Shown here in pieces: positions 47,791 through 63,768 of a stretch of DNA of 64,000 nucleotides. The stretch is from assembly GCA_010405405.1 (NCBI GenBank), contig MU004242.1, positions 791,769-855,768 of the forward strand, read 5' to 3'. The notes beneath the pieces were generated by a model. It searched no databases, was not told the origin of the DNA, and saw nothing but the letters and a program-made list of their open reading frames with translations. Each line of letters starts with the position of its first letter. The stretch's first letter is position 1. The stretch comes from Microthyrium microscopicum. Its lineage: Eukaryota. A program made the translations under genes and the position numbers.

Positions 47791-50006
47791 TCAGAAAGCT
47801 GGCCGTCCACTATCCCACTTATCAAAAGTCTTTGGACTCCCATTCGAACGTCGCAACTCCGACATGGGTGGACTACTATCAGTTTGTGGTTGAGCTGGTA
47901 GACTCCATCTTGCACTGGATCTCCTAGACCCATCCTCTCCATTTTCAATGGCACGAATCGGTCCGATCCACTTCCAGCCTCTTCCCACATCACCCGTGTC
48001 TAGCGCACCGGTCTTGGCGCGGACATTAGTATTTTGCTCGACGAGTTTTTCGACATGTTTCCATAACTTCTTGCGCCGAGACGCGCTGAACTCATGGCGA
48101 AGGACGTCGTCGCGTAGTTGATGGACGGAGAGATAGCCATCATAGCCTTGGGGGTCGTGAATGACGGCCGCGGCGTGCTCGGCGAGAGATTGGAAGACAT
48201 CGGATGCTAGAGTCTTTGCTTCGGCTTGCGTAGCTCGTGAGTCACGCAGCTGTCGGGCGGGTAGGATAGTGAAGAGGAGTGCGAGAATGGCGATTACAAG
48301 TTTCCGAGAATGTTGTTCCAAACTGCGTCGGAAGGATCGGCGGATGGCGCAGGAGAGGCTGATTTTTGCGAGAGAGGTGCTGTGGTAGCTGCGTTTGCGG
48401 GTGCTTCTGTAGGGGAGAAAGGGTGTCTGTTAGTTTGAGGCATTTACATCAGTATGATATGTCAAGCACATGCTACGAGATGCATGGCGCAAGGGAGTAG
48501 AGAACTTGGAATATAAACTTACTGGTCATCAGTTATGACGATTTCATCACGTCCTGCTAGGTCTTCGAGTGCTTGTGAGAACAAGATTTCAGCCTCCTCT
48601 GGGCTTACGTGTTTGCGAAAGCTGGAGAGGACTTCTTTTTTGAGCTCGGCTTCTTCAATCTTGGGTGACTTTGAGGTGCCGCACTCTGCGTCTGCGGAAG
48701 CTTTCCTAAGCTTTTCCACTGCAAAGTCGGCTACTGCTTTGATTCTTTTTGCTTTTGCGCTATCCGGTGCGCAAGTTGGTGGTAATGGAAGTAGACCGCC
48801 AAGTGAGAGTGGATGATTCTGAAGGACAAAGTCTTTCTCACACTCAGTTTTCAGATTCTGATAACAGCTAGCGTGAAGCGGACACTTTTCGCACTCGGGA
48901 CGTAAGCCATCTGCCCAAGGTGGAATTTCAACACCTGCGATGTTACCGGATGGTTCCCCTACACCGCAATATCCAACTTTGAACTTTTCTTCTCGATATA
49001 ACTGCCCAAAGCACGCTGAAACTACTAGAAGGAATGCGATGATGAATTGGCCAAGAGGTGCAAGATTCGCAGGTTGTCGACGTCGAACTGGAACTACAGC
49101 AGTTGGCCTATCTTTGCGATCATGCGCGAGAGCATGTTGTTCCTCTGGAGTAAACTCTTCTGTGACATCCATATCGTCTTCTGGGTCGTAGGAATTATTC
49201 AGGGGCAGGTCAACAACGGTATTATTAGTGACAGTAGTAGACGCATTATCGGTTTTTCTGCGTCCAACGGATTTGCGGCGTCTCGGAGCTTCCTCTGATG
49301 GGCCATCAGTCCGTCGTCTTCGTGATGATGACTCTGCTGGTGGCGAGCTCCCGCTCTGGAATGGATTGTCGGCTGAAAAGGGACTGTCATTGCCAAATTG
49401 TCGCCATGTCGCAGGATCCGACTCTTCTTTCTTGATTCCTGGAGTGGCTGTCGCACGGCGTGTATCTTGTACAGGACGCGATCTCGACCGCTCTTTAGAT
49501 GGTTCGACGCTCTTTCTTGTTGGCGCAGGAGTTTTGCGTCTTATGGTGGTAGGGGCGACTATCGTGTCATCGTTGTCTTCTTGAATTGGATCTCTGCTCT
49601 TTTTTGGAGCGGGAGTTCTACGTCGCGAAGTAGATGGGCGGGTAGCGCTTGATTCCGCTTGATCATCGGTGGAGGGTTTGGTCGACTTCTTTGGGCGTCC
49701 TCTTTTCTTGGGAGCTGGCTCTGGCTCCGGCTCATCATCATCGTCTTGGGTGCTTGCTATGCTGCTGGTCGCATCTTCGATACCAGTGCTAGATCTTTGG
49801 ATTTTGCGATGAGCGGCGAGAATCTTACGGGCCTTGGGTTTGAGGTCGGAGTTGAAAAGGGCGACGAGATCAGCCTTCTTCGCATTGGACGGGTATTTGA
49901 TGTCATGTGTTAGGAGGATATTGCGCAGACGAGGGACGACTAGCGTAGATGGGTCAAAGTTTGGTTGGAGATATGCCAACTCATCATCGGCGGAGAGGCT
50001 AGCCAT
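47791..50006 (-). CDS. SRC1: Inner nuclear membrane LEM/HeH and Man1-Src1 C-terminal protein
   Basis: HeH domain YLQPNFDPSTLVVPRLRNILLTHDIKYPSNAKKADLV, GYCG, CEKCPLHASC, PTCAPD, and MSC domain QLRDDVL..LWKHVEKLVEQNTNVR..WKWIG. Intron 48407-48522. Confidence 0.93.
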
Positions 50007-50667
50007 GATTTAAAGTCGAGGGTAGGGTGTAGGGATGAGGGATTGAGGAAACGGGAGGATAGAGGCAAAGTGGTAGAGATACTCAGATACTCACTGACGG
50101 GTGATGTAAACATTCAAGAGTTGAAGTGTTTTGGGTCCGAGCTTCAACTCTAGCTGTATCTGGTCTGGCGTTGCTTGTCTGGCCATGATTCTTATCCGCC
50201 ATCCGCCATCCGTCTTCCGCGCGTCTAGCGGGCCGCTTTCTGCCTTGGTTCGCCACACTCTGAAGCCTTGATGCCTTGATCCCAGCATCGCGTTCAATGT
50301 TCAACATTTGAACAGTTGAAGATTGAATCTCTACCGTATTTCCAGTAACCGCACCATAAATTATACACCATACAGCTTCATGGCCTACCAAACTATTTTC
50401 GTCGCCTCTGGGGATCACATCGATTGCCAATGATGCTTTGGTGCTGAATGCTGATGGCTTCGTCTAACTTGTAGTACTTTCAACGTCGCCAAATTTTTAA
50501 GAGGACCTACGGTAGGTATCCATCGATCAGGGTGAGTATACCTAGACTACTCCCAATCTCTACTAAGCCTGCTTGTAGAACCTCAAAGTCCCTCGAAATC
50601 CTTCCAGTACATAGCCTGATCTTTGCGCTGCCCCAAAGATGCTTCTCGATTGTATGCTGCCCGCAAA

Positions 50668-53600
50668 ATGTCCTCCATTCGCCTTACACCATTCACCAAA
50701 GACTACATAGAGGCTTTATCAAGGCTTCCAACTTGCCCAGCACCAAAAACAAATATAGTGCACGCCCAGTGGGACCTATATTCTCAGCACAGGAGAAGAT
50801 TGGTCAATCTATTCGCAAGAGACAAATGGCCAGAAATATCAGTCAAGCATCCTCAGGTGCTCCGCCCCTACGTATTCGATCCGAAGGTGGACAAATGGGA
50901 ACATATTGCAAAGACTCATGGCAAACCCCTGCATCGTGGCAAAGTTGTGCGAGTGTATTCATACAACCGCTTTGCCCACTCTTGGGGTGTAGAGCGCATG
51001 TCTGCGCTATTGGACTATTTGAAGACAAAAGTCGGCCCCGACCCAAATGCAAGCGTCATTATGCTACAGGAAGTTCAGGATAGTACCTACAATGTTCTAA
51101 TGAACCATCCTTGGGTCAAAGAGCACTATGTTTTGTCGAATATTTCCAAACCCGAGAGTGTATACACCGACATCCCAGATGAGTCCTTCACAGTTAAGCT
51201 CGAAGAATGGACATCATCAACTCATGCCACTTCGATGCTAGTGTCAAAAGATCTTTCCATTCTCAATTGTGTGCGCATTCCTTTCGAGAACACGTTCTCA
51301 GGACGAGAAGCACTGGTAAGACGCACCCTCATTATTGGCATAAGTTGACCTTCTCTGGAATGCTACTCAAAGCCTCAATGCTGAGCATTATTTCAGCGGA
51401 GCACCTTAGCCAACACCAATCCATGCGCCGAGTCGACGCTGACAGGACCAGGTGATAGACATTGCTCTCGCCCAAAATGACAGCTCGTCCCCACCCGAGG
51501 CATTTCGGTTGTGCACCGCTCATCTAGAGGCAAATATTTTACCCGCAAGGTTAAGCCAGTTAAACTTACTCTCCACTATTCTTGAAGGATCGCTGCCGGC
51601 CCCTTACACCATCCGGGCAGGTTTGTTGGGAGGTGATATGAACAAGCTTAACATACCATCGACCCACAGGCATCGTGCGCCCTCTAGAGGAAATCTGAAG
51701 GATGCTTGGGATGACCAATTTAGGCCTCTGGTCCCCAACAAATCACAATTTGATTCTTCAGCTGCCCATAGCTTGCAATTAAATGCTACCAGTGGAACTC
51801 ATAGTCGTCGAATATCGCGACCAACTGCACACTCTGCACAAAAAGACGATATGTTATCGCCTCTCCTAGCTCTCCAAGACCTTGAGCGCGATCTTCCTCA
51901 AAATCAAAATGATTCTCCACTGAGGCCCGCCATACCTGAGAAAACAAATTTCGATTATCCGAGTAATACAAGCTCACAATCAACGGTACCATTCACGTAC
52001 GAGGCGTCACGAATCAGAAATCGAAAGCTAAGAAGTAGACCGCGAGTAAGTCTTATCGATATCCTGTGTGAAAGGATCAACATTAACACATTTTGGGTGC
52101 GGTTCCATTCCAGGATACTGGAGCGCATAAAAGCTAAAATACGCTTTTCAAACATACAGAGCAAGCAGATTAGCTTCTCCGCAACTTCCGTTGCTGAGGA
52201 AGTTATCCCTAGCCTGGCGCAGGAACATGCATTGGACATCACGTCCTCTTCACCAACACATGAGTCACAAGCAATCAATTTTCTGCCAAAAAGGTTAGGA
52301 ATTAATGCAAGGAAGAAAAAATCTTATTGGGCAAGGAAGAAGTTGCGGCGCATGAAGGCTGCAATACACTCTCGATACGCACAAAACTTGATCAGTCACT
52401 CGGACTCAGTCAGTGAAAAGATGGAGGACGAGGTCCCTATAGAAGAGTATAGAACGGGCGCCACGACCCCTTCCGTACTGAATGGATCAACCTCCACGGA
52501 GGTCAAGACGATTTCAAAGGGCACAGCCCCAACCGCCGCTCCTGTGCTTAGAGGACAACATCCATATTTTCATTGCAGTCCGGGAGAAGGCGCAATCGTA
52601 TCAGATCCTGCTGTTGCACACCAATTGCCGCTGCTAGCAAACGACTCGTCGAATATTGGGTCAATGTCTAGGTCTGCTTATCACCCCCCGCGACATGGCA
52701 CAGTTGAGACGTCAAAGGAAGCAATATCAGCGGGGAAACGACCTGCTAATCCACCTGCTGGTTATGAAGGAATCAAACCCAGATTATGGAAGCCAACTCT
52801 GGTGAGGAAGCATCTCGTCTCCTCAGACAGGGAGCATAAAACGTTGGAGTTGTCAGAACACCAAATTGTGTACCATTCTCATATCCCAGCAGTGGCTCGA
52901 GAAAAGTCGGCTGTCACAAAGCTCGAGGCCCCGTCGGACGGAGAAGCATTTTGTGTTCCGTCAATCACTGAGCAGCCAGTATCATCATCGTTAGAACAAC
53001 AAAATCTGACCGATGTTGAGATGCCAGCGGTATCTCGAGAACAGTCAGCCCTTGGCAAGCTGAAGGCCATGTCAGATGGAGAAATATGTACTCGGACGCC
53101 AGCAAGTACAGGACGAAAGGAGTCATTGCCCTATAAGCAATTGCTAGACGAGGAATCTAAAGATCGTGCGCTACGGACGAAAATATTGCCTTTCTATCAC
53201 GCAATCAGCAGTAAAAAGCACTACCACACTGTAACGCGAAAGCGACAATTTCGCGAAGGCCTGCACATGCAGGGTCTGCGACAGGCGTTAAAGAAAACGG
53301 AATTCACTGTTCCTGCTAGCTTTCAGCATCTACTCACTCAACCATTCATCGACCGGTTCTGGAGCGCCCCTGATGGAAGCATCAGGCGAAAACAGAAAGA
53401 CTTGTTCTCGGAAAATGATAACGATACAGACAAATGGTCCACTAGTTCCCCCTTCATCCCAATTGAGCTCCGACGAGATCTCCTTCAAAAGTTCCATGAT
53501 AGAAGCGGGCACTCGTCTTGGCCAGGTCATGCCAGTCTTATTGAAGCAGAGGGATGGTGGCCGGGGATGGAGGATGACTTCCGTGAATTTCACAAGTTCT

Positions 53601-54475
53601 GTCCTGTTTGTCAAAGCAAGCAGGGTGATGGAGAGAACAACCACGATGAAGCTAGCCCATCATCTACATTGGAGGACGCAATCAGTCGTCAAGTCGGCTC
53701 ACTTTATTTTCCCCGTGTTCCTGTGCGGGGAACTCTCCCTACTCCTGCTCCAAGTCCGATCACCCATACGCAAGCGAAAACCCCACCTCTTCTCGTCAGG
53801 AAATATCAATCTAATAGCTCATACCCTCTCGTGGAAAAGCATCTCATCGCTTGGGAGGATCATGGCAGGCACTATACTCCTATTGTAAGCCATGGTGTGG
53901 TAGAGAATACTAAACGAGCCCCTACTCCGCTCCCCAAATCACCATCTAATTTTGACCATGATCGCGATAACCGATGGAGTCGCCGTTCACGGGCAAAGAT
54001 GGACATCCACACCAACTACGCCATAGCCATCGCCGAGCACAGAAAACTCGGCCTCGAACCCAGCACAATACAGGACCACTTCCCTTATGCTGGCCGGTAC
54101 GAAGGATCTACTTACGGCTTCCATATTAAACCGGGCGGCTCGTTAGTCTGGCCGAAGCGGCTAGACAGATTTTTCTACACCGGGTCGCTGGAGACTGTGG
54201 CGCTTGGCAACGGCGAAGACCAGGTGCGCAATGTTGGACGTTTGGGTATCGGTCTCAAGACCACAGTTGATGCCTGGAGAGCCGAGAAGGATGGACAGCC
54301 GGGTCAGTCGCACGGGCGCGACCGTCCGTATGTTGACTATATTTCGCTCGAAACGCTTGCTTCGCAGCAGCTGAGTGTTCATACGTGGTCGCGGATACGG
54401 AAGTTAGAAAAGGTCCGACATGATATTTGGGTTAGCGATCATTTTGGCATATGTGTTGGCGTTAGAGTACTTTGA
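50668..54475 (+). CDS. EEP-superfamily (TDP2-like) phosphodiesterase with a large internal insertion carrying an integrase-type HHCC zinc finger
   Basis: Intron 51316-51451 joins the two ORFs. EEP motifs VYSYN, VIMLQEV, LCTAHLE, GGDMN and LKDAW precede the insertion; STYG, RLDRFFY and WVSDHFGI follow it. HHCC motif at about 53453-53620. Confidence 0.82.
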
Positions 54476-55705: not shown

Positions 55706-56065
55706 TTGTGGCTACTATGCAAGCCTACAAATGCAACTGGCGAAGTAAAGACGATACTGCTTGCACAGTCAATGATATCGGTGCGAAGATACTCAATGTT
55801 GAGATCTTATTCCCGGTGCTTTATATTCGGACAGACCACAGAGCGATCCATTGAGGGCCAAATATCTATTTTAACAAGCAATGACAGGGCTTTTCAGGCC
55901 ATTGATATCTGATAACTTTATTTGAATTAAGCCTTCTCATATGTGCCAGTGTAATTATACCGGGCTTGCGCGGAGCACGATTTGAGATGCTTACTACCAT
56001 TCACCGCTGTACACAAACTCCATACTTGAGGTGATCGTGAGAAGCATCTGCTCAAAACAAACATC

Positions 56066-57076
56066 ATGGGCAGATATAGCTCCCTAGCCACACTTGCCCT
56101 TCTATTCACCGCAATAACAGCACTTCCCCAAAGCCCGCCGTCCACAAACTGCTTCAGAGCCCTTGCTCCCATCGCCGAAGGCGCCAGACAAGAACATGGC
56201 GCCGCAGCAGTCGGAACGAATCTTTATATCGTCGCTGGCATGCGCAACTGGAAGCTAGGTACCTCCGTCGAGAAGTACGACACCATCGCCAATAAATGGT
56301 CCACTGTAGCGCCGACGGAAATGGGTATGCACCATCCGAACGTCGCGTCCGTTGACGGAAAGGTGTATTTACTTGGCGGTCTCACCACTTTACCAAACGT
56401 CACTTCTGGATTATGGCCGAGCGAGTTGAATGTACGCTGCTATGCGTATGACCCAGCAAAAGATACATGGGAGAAGCTGGCGCCGTTGCCGGATCCGAGG
56501 GGTAGTGCGATGATTGCAGTACATGGCAAGAAGATATATCTAGTCGGCGGCGTCGTTGGGCCTGGAAAGGTGTTGGATGTAGTATCCGTGTATGATACCG
56601 TGAGCAACACGTGGTCCAAACTGTCCGACAAACCACTTCCCGAAGGACGAGATCATGGCGGCGGGGCTGTCGTTGGCGATACGTTTTACGCAGTCGCAGG
56701 TCGCCTAGGCTCACAAACTTCGCGCCAGAACTCCCTGTATGCGCTGAATCTAGTGGATCCAGCGGCGAAATGGCAGACACTTATGAATATGCCAAGCGCG
56801 CGAGGAGGCATCGCGGTGTCAGCGTTGGGAAGGAAGATATATGTCTTTGGTGGTGAGGGAAATCCGGAGCCCAATACGCAGGGCGTGTATTCCAACGTCG
56901 AGTCCTTTGATACTGAGACTAAGTCTTGGGCTGTTGAAGCTCCGATGAAAGTACCCCGACACGGAACTCCTGCTACGACTGTTGGAGATCGTATCTTCAT
57001 TGCGGGTGGTGGAGTGGCTCAGGGTGGAGCTAAAGGTGTTGCTACTGTAGAGTCTTACGGGCCTGGACCGTGTTAG
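56066..57076 (+). CDS. Secreted Kelch-repeat beta-propeller protein
   Basis: Signal peptide plus six Kelch repeats (e.g. GKVYLLGG, KIYLVGG, KIYVFGG, YD...W). Confidence 0.93.
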   Translation: MGRYSSLATLALLFTAITALPQSPPSTNCFRALAPIAEGARQEHGAAAVGTNLYIVAGMRNWKLGTSVEKYDTIANKWSTVAPTEMGMHHPNVASVDGKVYLLGGLTTLPNVTSGLWPSELNVRCYAYDPAKDTWEKLAPLPDPRGSAMIAVHGKKIYLVGGVVGPGKVLDVVSVYDTVSNTWSKLSDKPLPEGRDHGGGAVVGDTFYAVAGRLGSQTSRQNSLYALNLVDPAAKWQTLMNMPSARGGIAVSALGRKIYVFGGEGNPEPNTQGVYSNVESFDTETKSWAVEAPMKVPRHGTPATTVGDRIFIAGGGVAQGGAKGVATVESYGPGPC

Positions 57077-57528
57077 TAGTGTTGATATCGATGTATATGT
57101 AATGATACTCCCAAGGTTGAGGTCTTTTTACTTGCGAGAGTCGTTCAAATATTCGGTAATCCCACAGATCGTGGCGTCGTAAGCGCTGGGGAAGCAGAGC
57201 CTCAATTCAGCCCCCAAAAATCTGGGGAACCACCACCCAAAAATGACAGCATTGAACCTTCCTTGGCCACCATGATTCTGGGTAGAGATTGGCAGGTCCA
57301 ACGCGTCGATTTGACTCTTTCGTGATGAAGTCCCGCTGCGACTTGCCAAAGTACCTTTGTATGACCTGCTGACCATCGCGCCTTTCTGTACTATGTGTAG
57401 CCGCCTATTTTCATCACAGAGTTCCAGAGTGTTCAATTGACACTGTTGAAATCCCCGGAACGCCTGAATTGGATAGACCGCGTTTTTTGCAGCTAGGGAA
57501 TACCACAAATGGCATGTAGCACTCCGAA

Positions 57529-60500
57529 ATGGCCTCTCCCGTCTTCCCCACTTCAGGGGTAAGTCATATCCGTCTGATCTCGAGTACGCGTATGCACCAG
57601 CTAACCAACAATCAACAAACAGGATCGTCCACCAGCCGTACCGCGCTTAGAACTTCTCGCCGTCCCAGCTCCTGCAAAGCCATATCTCGATCTCATCGCT
57701 GTCCATGGCATCCTCGACCATAACCCAGACAATGCCTGGTCAGCACTGGGTACTGCGAATCCTCGCAATGCAGCCGGTGCCAAAACTACCAATTGGCTGG
57801 CCGATGCCGATATGCTGCCTTCGCAAGTACGCAACCTACGAGTATCAGCATTTAGATATGATACAACACCAGCGCGAGAGAAAAATGGCGGCCTAAGATT
57901 GCATCTAGAAAGATGTGCAGAAGCCTTGCGCGAGCGCATAAAAGAGCATACCCCGGACAAGCCACTGCTTTTCGTGGCACATGGATATGGAGGCTTGATT
58001 GTACTCAAAGCCTTGTTGAATGCACCTTTGTGTGAAAGGACCATTGGCGTAGTATGCCTGGGGACTGCATTCCGTCCTGTCGATGCCGAGATACACAATG
58101 CTATTAAAGACACCTTACCAGTCAGCAATCAAGACGGCTACGCCTCGGGAACGAACTTGGCAAGTCTTTTCGATGAATTTGAGGCCTTGCCCGACCTACT
58201 CGTCGACTTTCAAAGCGCCAAGGGAGCCCTAGACAGGCCAATCCGATGCTTCTACGAGACTGAACCTGTTGAGGATCGCGGAATCATCGTCCCGAAGCAA
58301 GCTGCAGTGCTGGATTGGACCAATGCAGTCAGCTTTGCTTTGGAGAAAGTCAACCACAACACCATGAACAAATTCGATGGGCCCCACGACCACAACTACG
58401 AGCTGATCAGCGATGTAATACAAGGACTCGTGGACCTGGCATATCCTCAGATGCTCGTTCAGGCAATTCAGAACAGCGACGATCCTCTAATCATCAGCCT
58501 CATTGATGCCCATCGAAGCTCATTCCCAACTAACGAGCTGCTAAACGAAGTACTGCAAGCCACAATCGTTGAGGGTAAGATTCCATCGCATTTCTCATTG
58601 TAACCAATGGCTTGGACCCTTAAAAGTGTTAGCTCCGATTGTAACCTTATACTGACAGATTACAGGCGATGTAAGGACTCTTCAGCTTCTCTTTGATGCC
58701 AACATCCGTGTCAATGCGCATCTGAACGAGGCTAAAGACACTGCTCTTATTCTCGCGGTGCGGTCACAAATTCCCAACAAGGCTCAAATCGTTCGCATGC
58801 TTCTTGAAAAGGGCGCAGATATAGGCGCCGTGAACTCGGACGACAGAAGTGCGTTTGATTACGCAGAGGGTTTCGAAAACGATGGGATCACGAATCTCCT
58901 TCGTGATAGACCTCTGATCCTGGGACCAGCAGTACGAAAAGCACAGGACGATTGGATTCCTGCCCCACATCTTAAGGTATACTTTTCCCGTATCTAATCA
59001 CATATCTTGATGGGATTTGAAATATACCGAAGTCAGTGATGCTGCCAGCGCATTCGAATGCTCTCATAGAGAGTATTTTCAACTGAGAGCTAAAGGATGC
59101 CACCAAATGCGCTAAGAGACCTACTATTCACCAAATATCTTTGCAGACCGTGTCAGCTCTAAACGCAATCTGAGACTAACAAATTGTAGGTTAATGACTA
59201 TCAAAGTACTCGGGGTCTCTTCGCCAAGATTGCTGATGTCTACGATGTGAATGGAGAAGAACGTACCTTTCTCCGCAATCCCAGCGTTCACGACCTGATC
59301 TATGAACATGGACCGCGCCATTTGATGAACCGGGCCACTTCGAAAGAATCGCAGCAAGGGAACCGAAAATTTCGTTGGCTCCATTTGCCAGCGAACAATC
59401 TGACTTGGATCAAGGACCTTATCCAAAGAACGTATCGCGAACGCGATGAGGAGAATGGGCGACAAAGAGCTTATTTCATACGCAAATTTCAGAGTATCAC
59501 GGATAAATCGCATTGGGAGGATATGGTGATCGCCAGTCCACTCCCGGAATTGACTCACATTCGACACATGACTCCTCGGTGCCGTGTGTTGCCTTATTAT
59601 GGAATCCCAGAAGACATTCCATCTGCCGATATGATACTCTTCGTAAGCTATTTCTAGCTCTAGAAGAATGCTCTAACATTTTCAGATGCCCTATCTTCAC
59701 TACGAATATACCGAGAAGCGCGAGAGTATGGCGAAAGCCGTCAATCGCATTCGAAATGGTGCCAGGAAATGGCCTGCTCGATCTGAGGAGCACAGCGCTG
59801 ATGAGAATTCCCTATGGGCCTACCTGAAAAAGGATATTCCTCTACATATTCGGAGAACACTCGATCAGTTTTACTACGATTCTTTTGATTCTGACAAATC
59901 AGAAATGGAAGATGTTCCACCGAGAAATCAAGATCAAGTTGTACAAAGGTTCATGAAATCGCAAAAGGAGTGGAAGGGCCAGGATCCACTTCTTTTGATG
60001 GTAGATCAACTATGGATGGTCATGTTAGAAGATGGTATGCTTAGAAATACTTGTAACAATGCCTTGCTAATTGTATAAACAGATACACTTATCACTGCAT
60101 TCCCAGAGAGATGGGGCTTGGTTGATCCACACCAAACGAATCCTATCAAAGATGCAGATATTGCCAATATGATTGCGAAAGAGCTTAGCAATCGACACCG
60201 ATCACCCCTCGATACCCCTTTTGACATGATGCTCCTGATTATTGAGCTCTGTACCAAAGTCCTATTCGATTCAGCCTCTCATCGAAACGAGAAACTAAGA
60301 TTTTTCGAATTTTATGAGCGTAAAATCCAAGAAATTGTAGGATGACCATCCTCGCCAATACCAAAACTAACAAAGCGTAGACCAACGAAGAATCTGTTGC
60401 ATTTACGCACATGAAAAACCGATTTGCCGACCTTTCTGAGAGAACTAACGCTCGCGTTCAGGCAAAGATGCACAGAAAACTTCTGGATGAGCTCCTTGAT

Positions 60501-61523
60501 ATATCGAATGAGCTCACCATGCTCAACGAGATCAAGGATGTCTCCGAAGAACTAAACATGATTGACTCTTTACTACAAGAGCAAATGGTTGTTATGGAAA
60601 AGATGGCGGACTTGCTAGAGTACCCAGTAAACCCGATTCCTCCTACAGTAAACAAGAAATGGAAAAAAACTCGAGAAGCAATCGAGTTACGTCGAGACAG
60701 AATCGCCGATATGACCGCTCACGCCCAATCAGTTCAGGACAATATCAAGACTCTCTTCGACATGAAACAACGCCAGGCAAACGCACTAGAAGCCCACATC
60801 TCAGCCAAAGTCGCTCAAGACGGAGAGAGGCAATCAGTGACCATAATGGTTTTCACCGTTGTAACAATTATATTCTTACCGCTTTCATTCATGAGCTCGT
60901 TCTTCGCGCTGAGCGTTAGAGAATGGCCTCGCGACCCACAAAACCAAAACCAAGTATACATGTCCCTCGGCTACGCGAGTCTGCGCATATTTGGCATCGG
61001 CTTTGGCATTGCCATTGGCATCGTTGGTCTCGCTTTCGGCATCAACGAAACACGAAACCGTCTCACCAAACCTGATCCACTCGGCGGTCTCGACAGTCTG
61101 CCATCATCTGCCGCCTCATCCGCTATGGACTCTGCTGCATCGTTCATCTCTTCTTTCCAAGCACGCGCCACTTCTATTCTCACACCCGCCGGCCGCCCAC
61201 TCATTCTAGATCCGAAGCGCGTTCTTGCGAGGCGCGCAGATGGCTTCAGTATGATCGAGTATCAAGAGCCCACGCCTTGTCCGCCAGCCAAGTTTCCAAG
61301 TCAGGCAGTTGCGACGGGGCTATCGAGCTCGAGTTCAGATTCACCAGCGACACGCAGTCTGCTGTCAAACTTCCTCCGTAGATCGACGCCGAAGTTGGCG
61401 AGTGTGGAGGATGATGGTGGCCTGGCGGAGAAGGGTGGGTTGGCGAGGAGACAGACTAAGAGCTGGGATGTCAGGCGAAGTAAACCACGGCGGTGGGGGT
61501 TTTGGAGAAATGGGACTATGTGA
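57529..61523 (+). CDS. SesB-like alpha/beta-hydrolase + ankyrin + CorA-like membrane domain fusion (~1160 aa); 7 exons
   Basis: Introns 57559-57622, 58576-58665, 58977-59189, 59643-59685, ~60035-60082 and ~60338-60380 all keep the frame. Motifs DLIAVHG, NWL.D..MLP, LLFVAHGYGGLIV, CFYET, ankyrin TALILAV/LLEKGAD, RWLHLPANN, MPYLHYE, RRTLDQFYY, LMVDQLW and FTVVTIIFLPLSFMSSFF. Confidence 0.85.
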
Positions 61524-62371
61524 GCTGCTGGGCTCTGGAGATGCTAACGAGATCTACATATCTGTTCTATACACTATTTCGTATTAACTAAATGATTATA
61601 CCTTTCTACACCGGACGGTTTGGCATGCCTCCTTGTCCTTGCGTTATGGCATCGTCGATATGTTACAGACAATCCATGTGGAGCCCAGCGCGTACGCTTT
61701 AGACGTCTTTGCCCAGAGATCAACTTACAAACCCTGAGATCTAAGGATCATTCCCACGTACCAGATCTAATCAATCCTTCCCACGAAACGTATTTTAGTC
61801 ACGCCTTCGTCGGCTAGGACGTTATCATTAGTACGTGAGAGCCAACCGATCTCGGCGCGCAGCGGAAGAGCGCATTCCAAGCAAGGGAGGCAAGGCAGAC
61901 TTAGCCCTTTGGGCACCGAGAATGAAATTGATAGTCATTTTGTGCGAGATTGAGATTGGTTGTCGTGGGTGTTGTTGTTGCGAGTGAAGACAAAAAGGAA
62001 TACTCTAATATGCAACAAGACTTGGGTAGATCAGCAAGTGCTAGGCTAAAGTAGGGGTTGAGTGATCGATTATACTACAAGTATTCACCAAGGTTCTAGA
62101 TACTTAGGTACGGTAGTAAGTATTTGATAGAGCGCTAACTAAATGCCGTTAATGAATAATTAGGATATTCTAGTCGTCTTGAAGAGATATATCTTTTTAA
62201 AATAATACAAAAGCTCACAACATGAGCAGAAATAACACCCAAGCATATCAAAACATACATACAGGTACCATACATCAGTGAAGTCAACTATAAAAATGTT
62301 TATTGCATAGAAACCAAAAAAAAACGATATATTGAAATATCCGCTTGCACATAGACATACATTTTGAAATG

Positions 62372-62442
62372 TGCATCGGCCGTGAATCGAACACGGGGCC
62401 CATCGATGGCAACGATGGATTTTACCACTAAACCACCGAAGC
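62372..62442 (-). tRNA. tRNA-Gly(GCC), intronless
   Basis: Minus strand reads GCTTCGGTGGTTTAGTGGTAAAATCCATCGTTGCCATCGATGGGCCCCGTGTTCGATTCACGGCCGATGCA: cloverleaf, GCC anticodon, A and B boxes, and a downstream T-run. Confidence 0.95.
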
Positions 62443-62955
62443 AAGCTTGGTATTAAACACAAAATCAGCGGCCAAACGTATATATTCTCCTAGCTCTGTC
62501 ATTGGATCATATTCACCCAAACTGGAGGTTACTCAATTCTCGTTGGACGTTTTGCATAATTTGACATTTGAGCATATTATTTATCTTGCCAGTTATCGTT
62601 GTTTCGTGACGTGGGTAATGCCGTGGACTTTAGGTAAGTGCTTATTATCCTTAGATGCCGAATCCATAAGAATACAGTGGTATAGCACTACCGGTTAGAC
62701 TTCAGGACAATCTTTTTTATTATAATTGATCCAAGTTGTAATGTCGTTCGAATACAAGTAAATTCTTCCATTCACAAATTGGGCGAATCAATGCCTGTCT
62801 GGCAGCGCCGCCTAGTAGGACTCTTAAACCTGAATCCAATATAGGATCTCTGTTTATGTATCATCCTGATATGACATAAGACGGAACCGGATTTCAATTC
62901 TCTTGAGTTACCTCAGCATCTATAATTGGCACTAGTAGGAAAGTATATCATATCG

Positions 62956-63768
62956 ATGCGGTATCTGCTATTTCTCTTCTCCTATATCCATATCATTTCT
63001 CTATTGGGACTCGTTCAAACTCAACACTATTCAACGCAACCACCAATGACTGTATTCAACGAGCCATAGCCACCTCGGTCAAATAAGGCGCAAATGCCGA
63101 ATCTCTTATCGGGACTGGATCACCCTCTTGCAAGGTTAAACTCTTCCATGTCAGGCAGAAGTTACCACGCATACGAAGATGGGCCACGTTGGCAGCTATG
63201 AGGATGGTGCAAGGCTTAATGAAGTCAAGAAGCCTATCGAAGCTATCCAGTCTCGCCTCTGGTCTGGACTCAGTCCCATGACCGGTGAACAGTGGAAACA
63301 AAAGAACGGCGATGGCACCGTCAACCTTCAAATGGCTGCTGAGTACCTCCGAGCGTTGATCTCTGCTTTCTCGTACCTAAATTCTGACGTCGTCAACTGG
63401 AAGCTTCGCGATACCTACAATCCTATATTCAACGATTTGCTGGAAGTTGGGAATGCTCTGGCGGAGCACTGTGACGAGAAGCCGCTTTGTCGATTCCGTT
63501 ATCGATTCCGTGCAATATGGGCTTCCTGTGTTAGGACTTCTTTCAGATTGTGGCTATTCGAACGCACTCGTGGATCGTCAACCGAGCTCAAGAGCTTATA
63601 CGAATAACAATTGCAAACTTTGAAGCGACTCCTGTAACATCTTCCCAAGAATTTAAATTGGTGGCTGAACAGTTTGTGACCACGACATACTCAATCAGAG
63701 GAGCAATGATTCGTGCGGACCACACAATTTTCGTAGATGCGGAAGAAATCAAAGGCATGAAAAGGTAA
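62956..63768 (+). pseudogene. Disrupted secreted-protein gene with a helical domain resembling C-terminal domains of large fungal GH18 chitinases
   Basis: Signal peptide MRYLLFLFSYIHIISLLGLVQT, then in-frame TAG at 63067 and frame changes near 63170 and 63550. Pattern GS......I.....LW....P....W...A..LR..I.AF.YLN...V......N.I...L. Confidence 0.5.

Follow-up and report, generated by a model that had tools for sequence, protein, structure and literature searches.

CorA-type channels are the textbook magnesium (Mg2+) channels, and the Gly-Met-Asn (GMN) triplet is required for Mg2+ in CorA, Mrs2 and Alr1. Divergent copies of CorA are numerous in fungi and are routinely labelled as Mg2+ transporters. 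The gene described here lies in a 64,000-nt window (the whole stretch of DNA that was analysed, from Microthyrium microscopicum contig MU004242.1, positions 791,769 to 855,768, with window positions counted from its first nucleotide), and encodes one protein in which a SesB-like alpha/beta-hydrolase domain, ankyrin (Ank) repeats and a CorA-like membrane domain follow one another. With CorA, Mrs2 and Alr1 (MIT superfamily, PF01544; T. maritima CorA, PDB 4i0u, 8tmb), this protein has in common the cytoplasmic alpha/beta/alpha domain, the stalk and two transmembrane (TM) helices, and with CorA channels also the motif FLPLSF in the first helix (TM1) and a predicted TM1-TM1 association. It differs from CorA in reading ALS for GMN, in its longer loop after TM1, and in about 430 additional N-terminal residues (SesB-like and Ank) and a 150-residue disordered tail, and its sequence identity to the solved CorA proteins is only 9-11%.

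A CorA-family membrane effector functions in type III CRISPR defence (PMC10600005; this and all other papers are cited from extracts of their text). The effector of the Bacteroides fragilis type III-B system, which is activated by SAM-AMP, is likewise a divergent CorA-family membrane protein with a non-CorA ligand-binding N-terminal region, and a ligand-opened defence pore is proposed for it in the extract (PMC10600005). It is compared here by description only: the effector comes from a bacterium, its gene neighbours cas10 and NrN, its N-terminal fold is another one, and only its C-terminal 172 residues are CorA-like, whereas the window protein has the whole CorA fold. No cas10 or NrN/DEDD gene was seen among the open reading frames (ORFs) scanned at 44-64 kb of the window.

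SesB-like domains are common N-terminal modules of fungal NOD-like receptors (NLRs) (PMC4986451, PMC12258605). SesB, the SesB-like domains of NLRs (PMC4986451, PMC3321046) and the lipase domain of human SERAC1 are homologous alpha/beta-hydrolases. The N-terminal position, the oxyanion His-Gly, the Glu and the His of the SesB-like NLR domains are found in the window protein too, but Gly stands there for the nucleophilic Ser/Cys, and the domain is followed by Ank and CorA-like parts rather than by NACHT/NB-ARC with repeats or by a sigma amyloid motif. On both pieces of background, the NLR module and the bacterial CRISPR effector, an earlier annotation made from the letters of the window (the sequence-only reading) agrees with the extracts of PMC4986451, PMC12258605 and PMC10600005.

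Pezizomycotina proteins filed as 'ankyrin repeat proteins' (Aspergillus clavatus P0002, Fusarium graminearum P0069) are members of the CorA-like family that includes the window protein, have lost GMN and carry Ank upstream; their Ank arrays are long, start at the N-terminus and come with no SesB-like domain, whereas the window protein has a SesB-like domain and about four repeats. A CorA-like transporter with ankyrin repeats is also mentioned, in a single sentence, for a gene on a Fusarium accessory chromosome (PMC12345182). The gene model and many of its relatives are already in databases as hypothetical or 'ankyrin repeat' proteins. In the literature searched, no description was found of the SesB-like/Ank/CorA-like architecture, of GMN loss in this family, or of nucleophile loss accompanying CorA fusion.

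Gene structure, CorA-like domain and ankyrin repeats

Joining of the exons (Table 1) gave a 1163-codon frame with no internal stop. All six introns (64, 91, 213, 43, 48 and 44 nt) are GT..AG, and a CTAAC/CTGAC-like branch site is present in each. The gene model equals, residue for residue, the deposited protein P0001 ('hypothetical protein BT63DRAFT_418056 [Microthyrium microscopicum]'), which was retrieved through a homology search using the last exon. In X1, the sole public run listed for the stretch (its RNA origin is a guess, and the contig was assembled from short reads), a single 10,742-nt contig on 57400-61700 was without exactly the six introns, all GT..AG, and ran without a break from exon 3 to exon 4 across the 213-nt intron. 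Since the organism's DNA would carry the introns, the spliced form exists as a molecule, and the SesB-like/ankyrin half and the CorA-like half are joined in it. Reading through intron 3 leads to a stop after 6 codons. Two relatives, P0072 (834 amino acids (aa); JGI/IMG contig of 7.8 kb; 49% identity to aa 30-809 of the window protein) and P0075 (746 aa; ENA; 41% identity to aa 74-784), continue unbroken from SesB-like through Ank to CorA-like across the position of this intron. The sequence-only reading had linked the three parts through six frame-preserving introns, which is confirmed by a contig that skips all six and by the identity with P0001; the split into two genes at the 213-nt intron, which it had named as one of the outcomes that would overturn it, was not seen in this contig.

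The X1 contig extends past both ends of 57400-61700 and is 10.7 kb long for a coding region of 3.5 kb, so neighbouring transcripts appear to have been merged in the assembly. A metagenome scan in which the contig of P0072 was sought gave 16 pattern matches, none of them a relative.

Against a cut-off of 27 bits, the CorA profile of Pfam scored 36.0 for exon 7 and 31.2 for the whole protein, the match spanning only profile positions 136-286 of 292. A model of the whole protein had a mean predicted local distance difference test score (pLDDT) of 74.7, with most blocks in aa 430-930 above 80, and its best Foldseek matches were T. maritima CorA (E 5e-6, ~570 columns). Alignment of model residues 441-917 to residues 27-291 of T. 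maritima CorA with VIA-align gave Z 18 and a root-mean-square deviation (rmsd) of 3.0-3.2 Å over 257-261 residues, and with the TM helices counted, residues 437-1005 aligned to 25-349. E. coli CorA, C. jejuni CorA and CmaX likewise matched the model. As modelled, the complete CorA architecture is present and is distributed over exons 4-7. Exactly two TM helices were found by hydropathy, with a loop of ~18 residues between them, and ALS directly follows the TM1 motif VTIIFLPLSFMSSFF; the ALS triplet and the two-TM CorA-like C-terminus noticed earlier were both found again.

The last exon matches 70 proteins, the window protein among them. Nearly all are Ank-CorA proteins of ~1100-1400 aa, a type widespread in Pezizomycotina (Aspergillus, Talaromyces, Fonsecaea, Exophiala, Trichoderma, Fusarium, Podospora, Cladosporium), and the best relative bearing a species name is 40-41% identical in the CorA part. 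The TM1 motif VTIIFLPLSF..S.F and the triplet after it were readable in 64 of the 70. GMN occurs in only six of these, the most distant members, and is absent from the other 58, which read TIN (11), AIG (10), ALD (10), AIN (5), ALN (5), AIP (3), ALS (2) or others, with N, D, G, S, P and E all found at the third position. There are 28 columns conserved at 90% or more, and 12 of them lie in aa 941-958, which makes TM1 the most conserved stretch of the family. Conservation of TM1 together with variation of the triplet indicates strong constraint on the pore-lining helix and freedom to change in the Mg2+-binding triplet. In a large branch of Pezizomycotina, the Mg2+ filter has been lost and cytosolic binding modules have been acquired.

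Conserved motifs were also seen in the cytoplasmic part of the family (RW.HLPANN, LH.RRTLDQ.YY, RD.DQVV, MVDQLWLW, LLD...E..LL.E.KDIRDE and LLDLKQK.AN); no classical CorA counterpart is stated for them, and they could mark a family-specific regulatory site.

Self-association was predicted with four copies of aa 772-1012 in three runs (contact agreement at least 92%, partner pLDDT at least 69), giving a score of 0.57 against 0.00 for the best control, with TM1-TM1 contacts at aa 942-959. Of 30 proteins solved as same-chain pairs, 21 reached the mark used for self-association; of 23 solved as single chains, none did. CorA pentamers have already been solved, so the four-copy result shows likeness to CorA and may come from the memory of the predictor.

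Ankyrin repeats were matched by Ank_4, Ank_2 and Ank of Pfam at aa 288-394 (Ank_4 30.9 bits, cut-off 22.7), and aa 280-420 of the model aligned to designed ankyrin proteins with Z ~17 and rmsd ~2.0 Å over ~122 residues. When the alignment of the whole family was used as a profile against the PDB, ankyrin proteins dominated the matches and no information on CorA was gained. The TRP channels (TRPA1, NOMPC) appeared among these ankyrin matches and also combine cytosolic Ank with an oligomeric cation channel; their channel fold is different (a 6-TM tetramer), and the analogy is one of design only. In the C-terminal tail, no amyloid signalling motif was detected (no Ses_B or HET-s type Pfam match at E<=1).

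The SesB-like domain in NLR-type and CorA-fused relatives

For the N-terminal domain, the alpha/beta-hydrolase matches in Pfam were sub-threshold only (Hydrolase_4, E 9e-4; DUF676, E 0.09). With exon 2 as the phmmer query against 1.84 billion representatives, 756 relatives were found at E<=1e-3, and the best 69 of the 756 were scanned with Pfam. In 31 of these 69, NACHT, NPHP3_N or NB-ARC lay directly downstream of the domain, usually continuing into Ank, TPR or HEAT repeats, and a short relative (P0098) ended in the Ses_B motif PF17046. When aa 1-330 were searched through a word index, the sole matches were the protein itself and a single NPHP3_N protein. A model of exon 2 (65-sequence alignment; pLDDT 87.1, predicted template-modelling score 0.87) had at least 500 matches in the PDB at E<=0.001, and the matches listed were all alpha/beta-hydrolases, including thioesterases, monoglyceride lipases and esterases. 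A genuine SesB-like module, of the kind found on fungal NLRs, stands at the N-terminus. Within the 1163-aa protein itself, no NACHT, NB-ARC or AAA domain was matched (Pfam, E<=0.01) and no Walker A motif GxxxxGK[ST] was present, as expected from the missing NACHT/NB-ARC P-loop in the sequence-only reading.

Across 149 aligned SesB-like stretches, the nucleophile elbow is [AG]H[SC]xGG, with S 73, C 58, G 16, T 1 and N 1 in the nucleophile column. The window protein reads AHGYGG, and HGYGG is shared by all seven members of its closest group (P0001, P0071-P0076). The elbow without Ser had been noticed before, set against a family consensus of AHSxGG; the Ser of that consensus holds for 73 of the 149 stretches, but as the sole consensus it fails, with Cys in 58. 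Conserved elsewhere in the domain are D33, H38, G39, W49, W68, E222, H255 and N259-K260-F261, each at 78-99% in the aligned relatives (E222 at 98%, H255 at 99%). E222 comes after strand seven of the model and H255 after strand eight, and from this order they were assigned as acid and base. We infer a triad of position 131 (nucleophile), Glu222 and His255 in which the nucleophile alone would be missing, the oxyanion motif H38-G39 being kept. With Gly at the nucleophile position, an acyl-enzyme cannot form. P0072 resembles the window protein equally in the pseudo-hydrolase domain (49% identity) and in the CorA region (54%, 357 columns), which argues that the nucleophile-less domain is being maintained.

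The 58 stretches with Cys at the nucleophile position (relatives P0071-P0220) often read ASCFGG (21), in which Ser replaces the preceding His, and their number indicates a large Cys-type SesB-like branch beside the Ser type.

By a SesB-like profile, the domain precedes the ankyrins in 21 of the 69 other members of the Ank-CorA family, with G (10), T (5), A (2), N (1), D (1) or S (2) at the nucleophile position. With the window protein included, 2 of 22 CorA-fused domains have Ser or Cys, whereas in the 31 NOD-containing proteins 32 of 32 stretches do (Fisher 7e-13, a descriptive value in which related sequences are treated as independent). The sequence-only reading had singled out the alteration of both signature motifs; both are altered here, and this is not private to the gene, as the triplet is likewise altered in 58 of 64 family members and the nucleophile in 20 of 22. 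The family contains a recurrent subset that carries an immune-receptor lipase-like domain, almost always without its nucleophile. Conversely, part of the CorA-like domain was found in only 5 of the 150 best SesB-like representatives, all five from the closest group of the window protein and two of them in the training set of the profile.

A quick maximum-likelihood tree of the CorA-like region (70 rows, unrooted, with truncated P0071 left out) placed the window protein, P0072 and P0075 together with support 100, adjoining eight Ank-only proteins with support 95. Most of the remaining SesB-bearing proteins formed a separate clade, and the SesB label has to change at least 7 times along the tree, in which several rows labelled SesB-less are short and possibly truncated models and one labelled SesB-bearing, P0003 (Biscogniauxia), is doubtful ('SHGYGS' in place of the elbow, with a marginal profile match of 0.9 bits). 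On this tree the SesB-like fusion appears as a recurrent subset of Ank-CorA proteins, which may be old with losses or may have had multiple origins.

P0033 (Kalmusia sp., 1943 aa), annotated as a mitochondrial Glu-tRNA ligase, has SesB-like (aa 815-935), Ank and CorA-like parts after its synthetase domains, and is probably two genes fused by the gene caller.

Candidate mechanism and competing explanations

The gene is expressed, and its product is a CorA-built membrane protein in which a funnel domain in the cytoplasm is followed by a long stalk helix and by two TM helices at the C-terminus. The protein is most likely a homo-oligomer, by homology a pentamer, with a central pore lined by TM1. 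With GMN gone and the third position of the triplet varying freely, it is probably not a Mg2+-selective channel, and the pore would conduct other ions or be poorly selective. Upstream of the funnel domain, the four ankyrin repeats and the SesB-like domain, which keeps its pocket and lacks its nucleophile, would serve as cytosolic binding modules, and a ligand or partner bound by them most likely sets the gating, in place of the classical Mg2+ feedback of CorA. Use of an alpha/beta-hydrolase fold that lacks a triad residue for binding is familiar from neuroligins and from the gibberellin receptor GID1, which belong to subfamilies unrelated to the domain found here and serve as an analogy only. 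The preferred reading from motifs and models is thus an oligomeric channel of CorA type without Mg2+ selectivity, under the control of its cytosolic Ank and SesB-like modules, at a probability of roughly 0.45. The family offers a concrete and testable candidate for a ligand-gated CorA-type pore in eukaryotes, and a clean natural series in which to look for what SesB-like domains bind.

Several observations weigh against such a channel. Asn is retained at the third triplet position in 30 of 64 relatives, and with about half of the family keeping it, some divalent-cation selectivity may persist. The evidence on the oligomer state is a four-copy prediction for a fragment, from a predictor that may have CorA in its memory, and in the whole-protein model some of the SesB-like domain is modelled with middling confidence. 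The counts of 2 of 22 and 32 of 32 are of kin sequences and not of independent events, and the SesB-bearing proteins sit in few clades on the CorA-domain tree. Outside the closest group, alignment of the hydrolase domain is only partial in most relatives fused to CorA, and in those the domain may be decaying rather than acting as a sensor. X1 is merely guessed to be RNA, and one contig leaves room for other or minor isoforms that may exist.

A tentative alternative, the one proposed in the sequence-only reading, is a dedicated executioner of non-self recognition or cell death. Ank and the dead SesB-like domain would detect a protein, or a ligand that is foreign or signals danger, and a non-selective CorA-like pore would then open, depolarising or killing the cell. 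Such a protein, a single chain with no NOD, would correspond to the NLR-plus-effector systems and to the CRISPR-associated CorA effector of bacteria. The family of the N-terminal domain is otherwise overwhelmingly an NLR module (31 of 69 with a NOD, one with Ses_B), and Ank are described as the commonest sensor repeats of ascomycete NLRs (PMC4986451). The bacterial CorA-family defence effector is somewhat toxic when expressed alone, according to the extract of PMC10600005, and the loss and variability of the filter triplet and the patchy, divergent family with its best named relative at 40-41% in the CorA part point the same way. So do an expansion of CorA in a lichen fungus, listed alongside those of HET, ankyrin and P-loop genes (PMC3897900, Table 2, as extracted), and the Ank-CorA gene on an accessory chromosome of Fusarium oxysporum (PMC12345182). 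Against an executioner stand the neighbours of the gene (kelch-repeat, integrase-like and Src1/Man1), with no NLR gene, HET gene or second copy of the gene in the 64-kb window; the presence of only about four ankyrin repeats, with no sign of repeat arrays of the NLR-sensor type; and the absence of an amyloid signalling motif (Pfam, E<=1). The protein may plausibly act in cell death or non-self recognition, and a regulated ion channel for homeostasis or signalling fits the data equally well. The sequence-only reading is supported in part: its anatomy is upheld, and its death or non-self pore is conjecture. If the protein does execute cell death, it would represent a new class of executioner in fungal immunity, linked by design to a bacterial defence effector.

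Extended to Pezizomycotina as a group, the same idea becomes doubtful: NOD-less, single-chain immune proteins would there combine sensor and pore, with a CorA-derived pore that no longer selects Mg2+ as executioner, Ank as the reader of the trigger, and the dead SesB-like domain as an integrated decoy or as a homotypic adaptor between the pore and SesB-type NLRs. Were this to hold, it would be a eukaryotic parallel to the CRISPR-associated CorA, and HeLo, gasdermin and patatin would be joined by a new family of fungal cell-death executioners.

An ordinary divalent-metal transporter (Mg2+, Zn2+, Co2+, Ni2+) of the CorA/ZntB/Alr1 kind, with N-terminal additions serving only localisation or turnover, is improbable. 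The complete CorA fold with the TM1 motif FLPLSF would suit such a transporter, as would the GMN kept in the six more distant members and the Asn in 30 of 64, and database names and the sentence in PMC12345182 treat proteins of this sort as Mg/Zn transporters. In the window protein, however, the ALS triplet removes the Gly, the Met and the Asn of the filter together; among relatives, the third position varies over N/D/G/S/P/E, unlike a conserved selectivity filter; and the ~18-residue loop after TM1 is without the MPEL-type sequence of CorA.

Still less probable is a protein that is no channel at all, with the CorA-like part acting as a membrane anchor or oligomerisation scaffold that displays Ank and the pseudo-lipase, for example as a lipid or protein receptor. 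Loss of the filter, a retained pseudo-hydrolase pocket that could hold a lipid, and a long disordered cytosolic tail suited to a scaffold are consistent with it, but conservation is highest in TM1, which lines the pore in CorA, and goes beyond the needs of an anchor. That two adjacent genes, or a decaying pseudogene, were read as one is very hard to sustain and is largely refuted: intron 3 is long for the gene, divides its two halves and is a multiple of three, but the contig joins exons 3 and 4 exactly at GT..AG with the other five introns also removed, the read-through stops, P0072 and P0075 are continuous, and the ORF is intact with its conserved motifs kept.

Feature coordinates and genomic surroundings

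Table 1. Coordinates of the gene, its parts and the neighbouring features, as nucleotide positions in the window
Feature	Position	Strand	Remarks
Whole coding region	57529..61523	+	7 exons, 6 introns, 1163 aa; stop TGA 61521-61523
Exons	57529-57558, 57623-58574, 58666-58976, 59190-59642, 59686-60034, 60083-60336, 60381-61523	+	
SesB-like alpha/beta-hydrolase domain, ~aa 20-270	57623..58400	+	within exon 2; from relatives and model
Nucleophile elbow AHGYGG, aa 129-134	~57977-57994	+	Gly131 at nucleophile position
Ankyrin domain, ~aa 280-420, ~four repeats	58401..58976	+	end of exon 2, intron 2 (58575-58665), exon 3
Intron 3 (213 nt), between SesB-like/Ank half and CorA-like half	58977..59189	+	skipped in contig, GT..AG
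CorA-like cytoplasmic domain and stalk helix, ~aa 432-925	59190..60800	+	exons 4-7, including introns 4-6
Two TM helices, TM1 ~aa 936-961, TM2 ~aa 980-1004	60834..61040	+	hydropathy, Pfam CorA
ALS at GMN position, aa 959-961	60906-60914	+	directly follows CorA TM1 motif
C-terminal tail, aa 1013-1163	61065..61520	+	Ser/Ala/Arg/Pro-rich; predicted disordered, pLDDT under 50
Src1/Man1-type inner-nuclear-membrane protein gene (HeH and MSC)	47791-50009	-	two ORFs split by an intron
1010-codon ORF	51443-54475	+	sole Pfam match Integrase_H2C2 zinc-binding domain, E 6e-11
Kelch-repeat gene (galactose-oxidase-like beta-propeller)	56030-57076	+	immediate upstream neighbour; single exon, hydrophobic signal-like N-terminus
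AT-richer stretch	62000-63000		directly downstream of the gene; GC 0.37-0.38, ~0.47 around

No ORF of 110 codons or more was found within the AT-richer stretch. The integrase-like ORF lies ~3 kb upstream of the gene and could be what remains of a retroelement, or a domesticated integrase.

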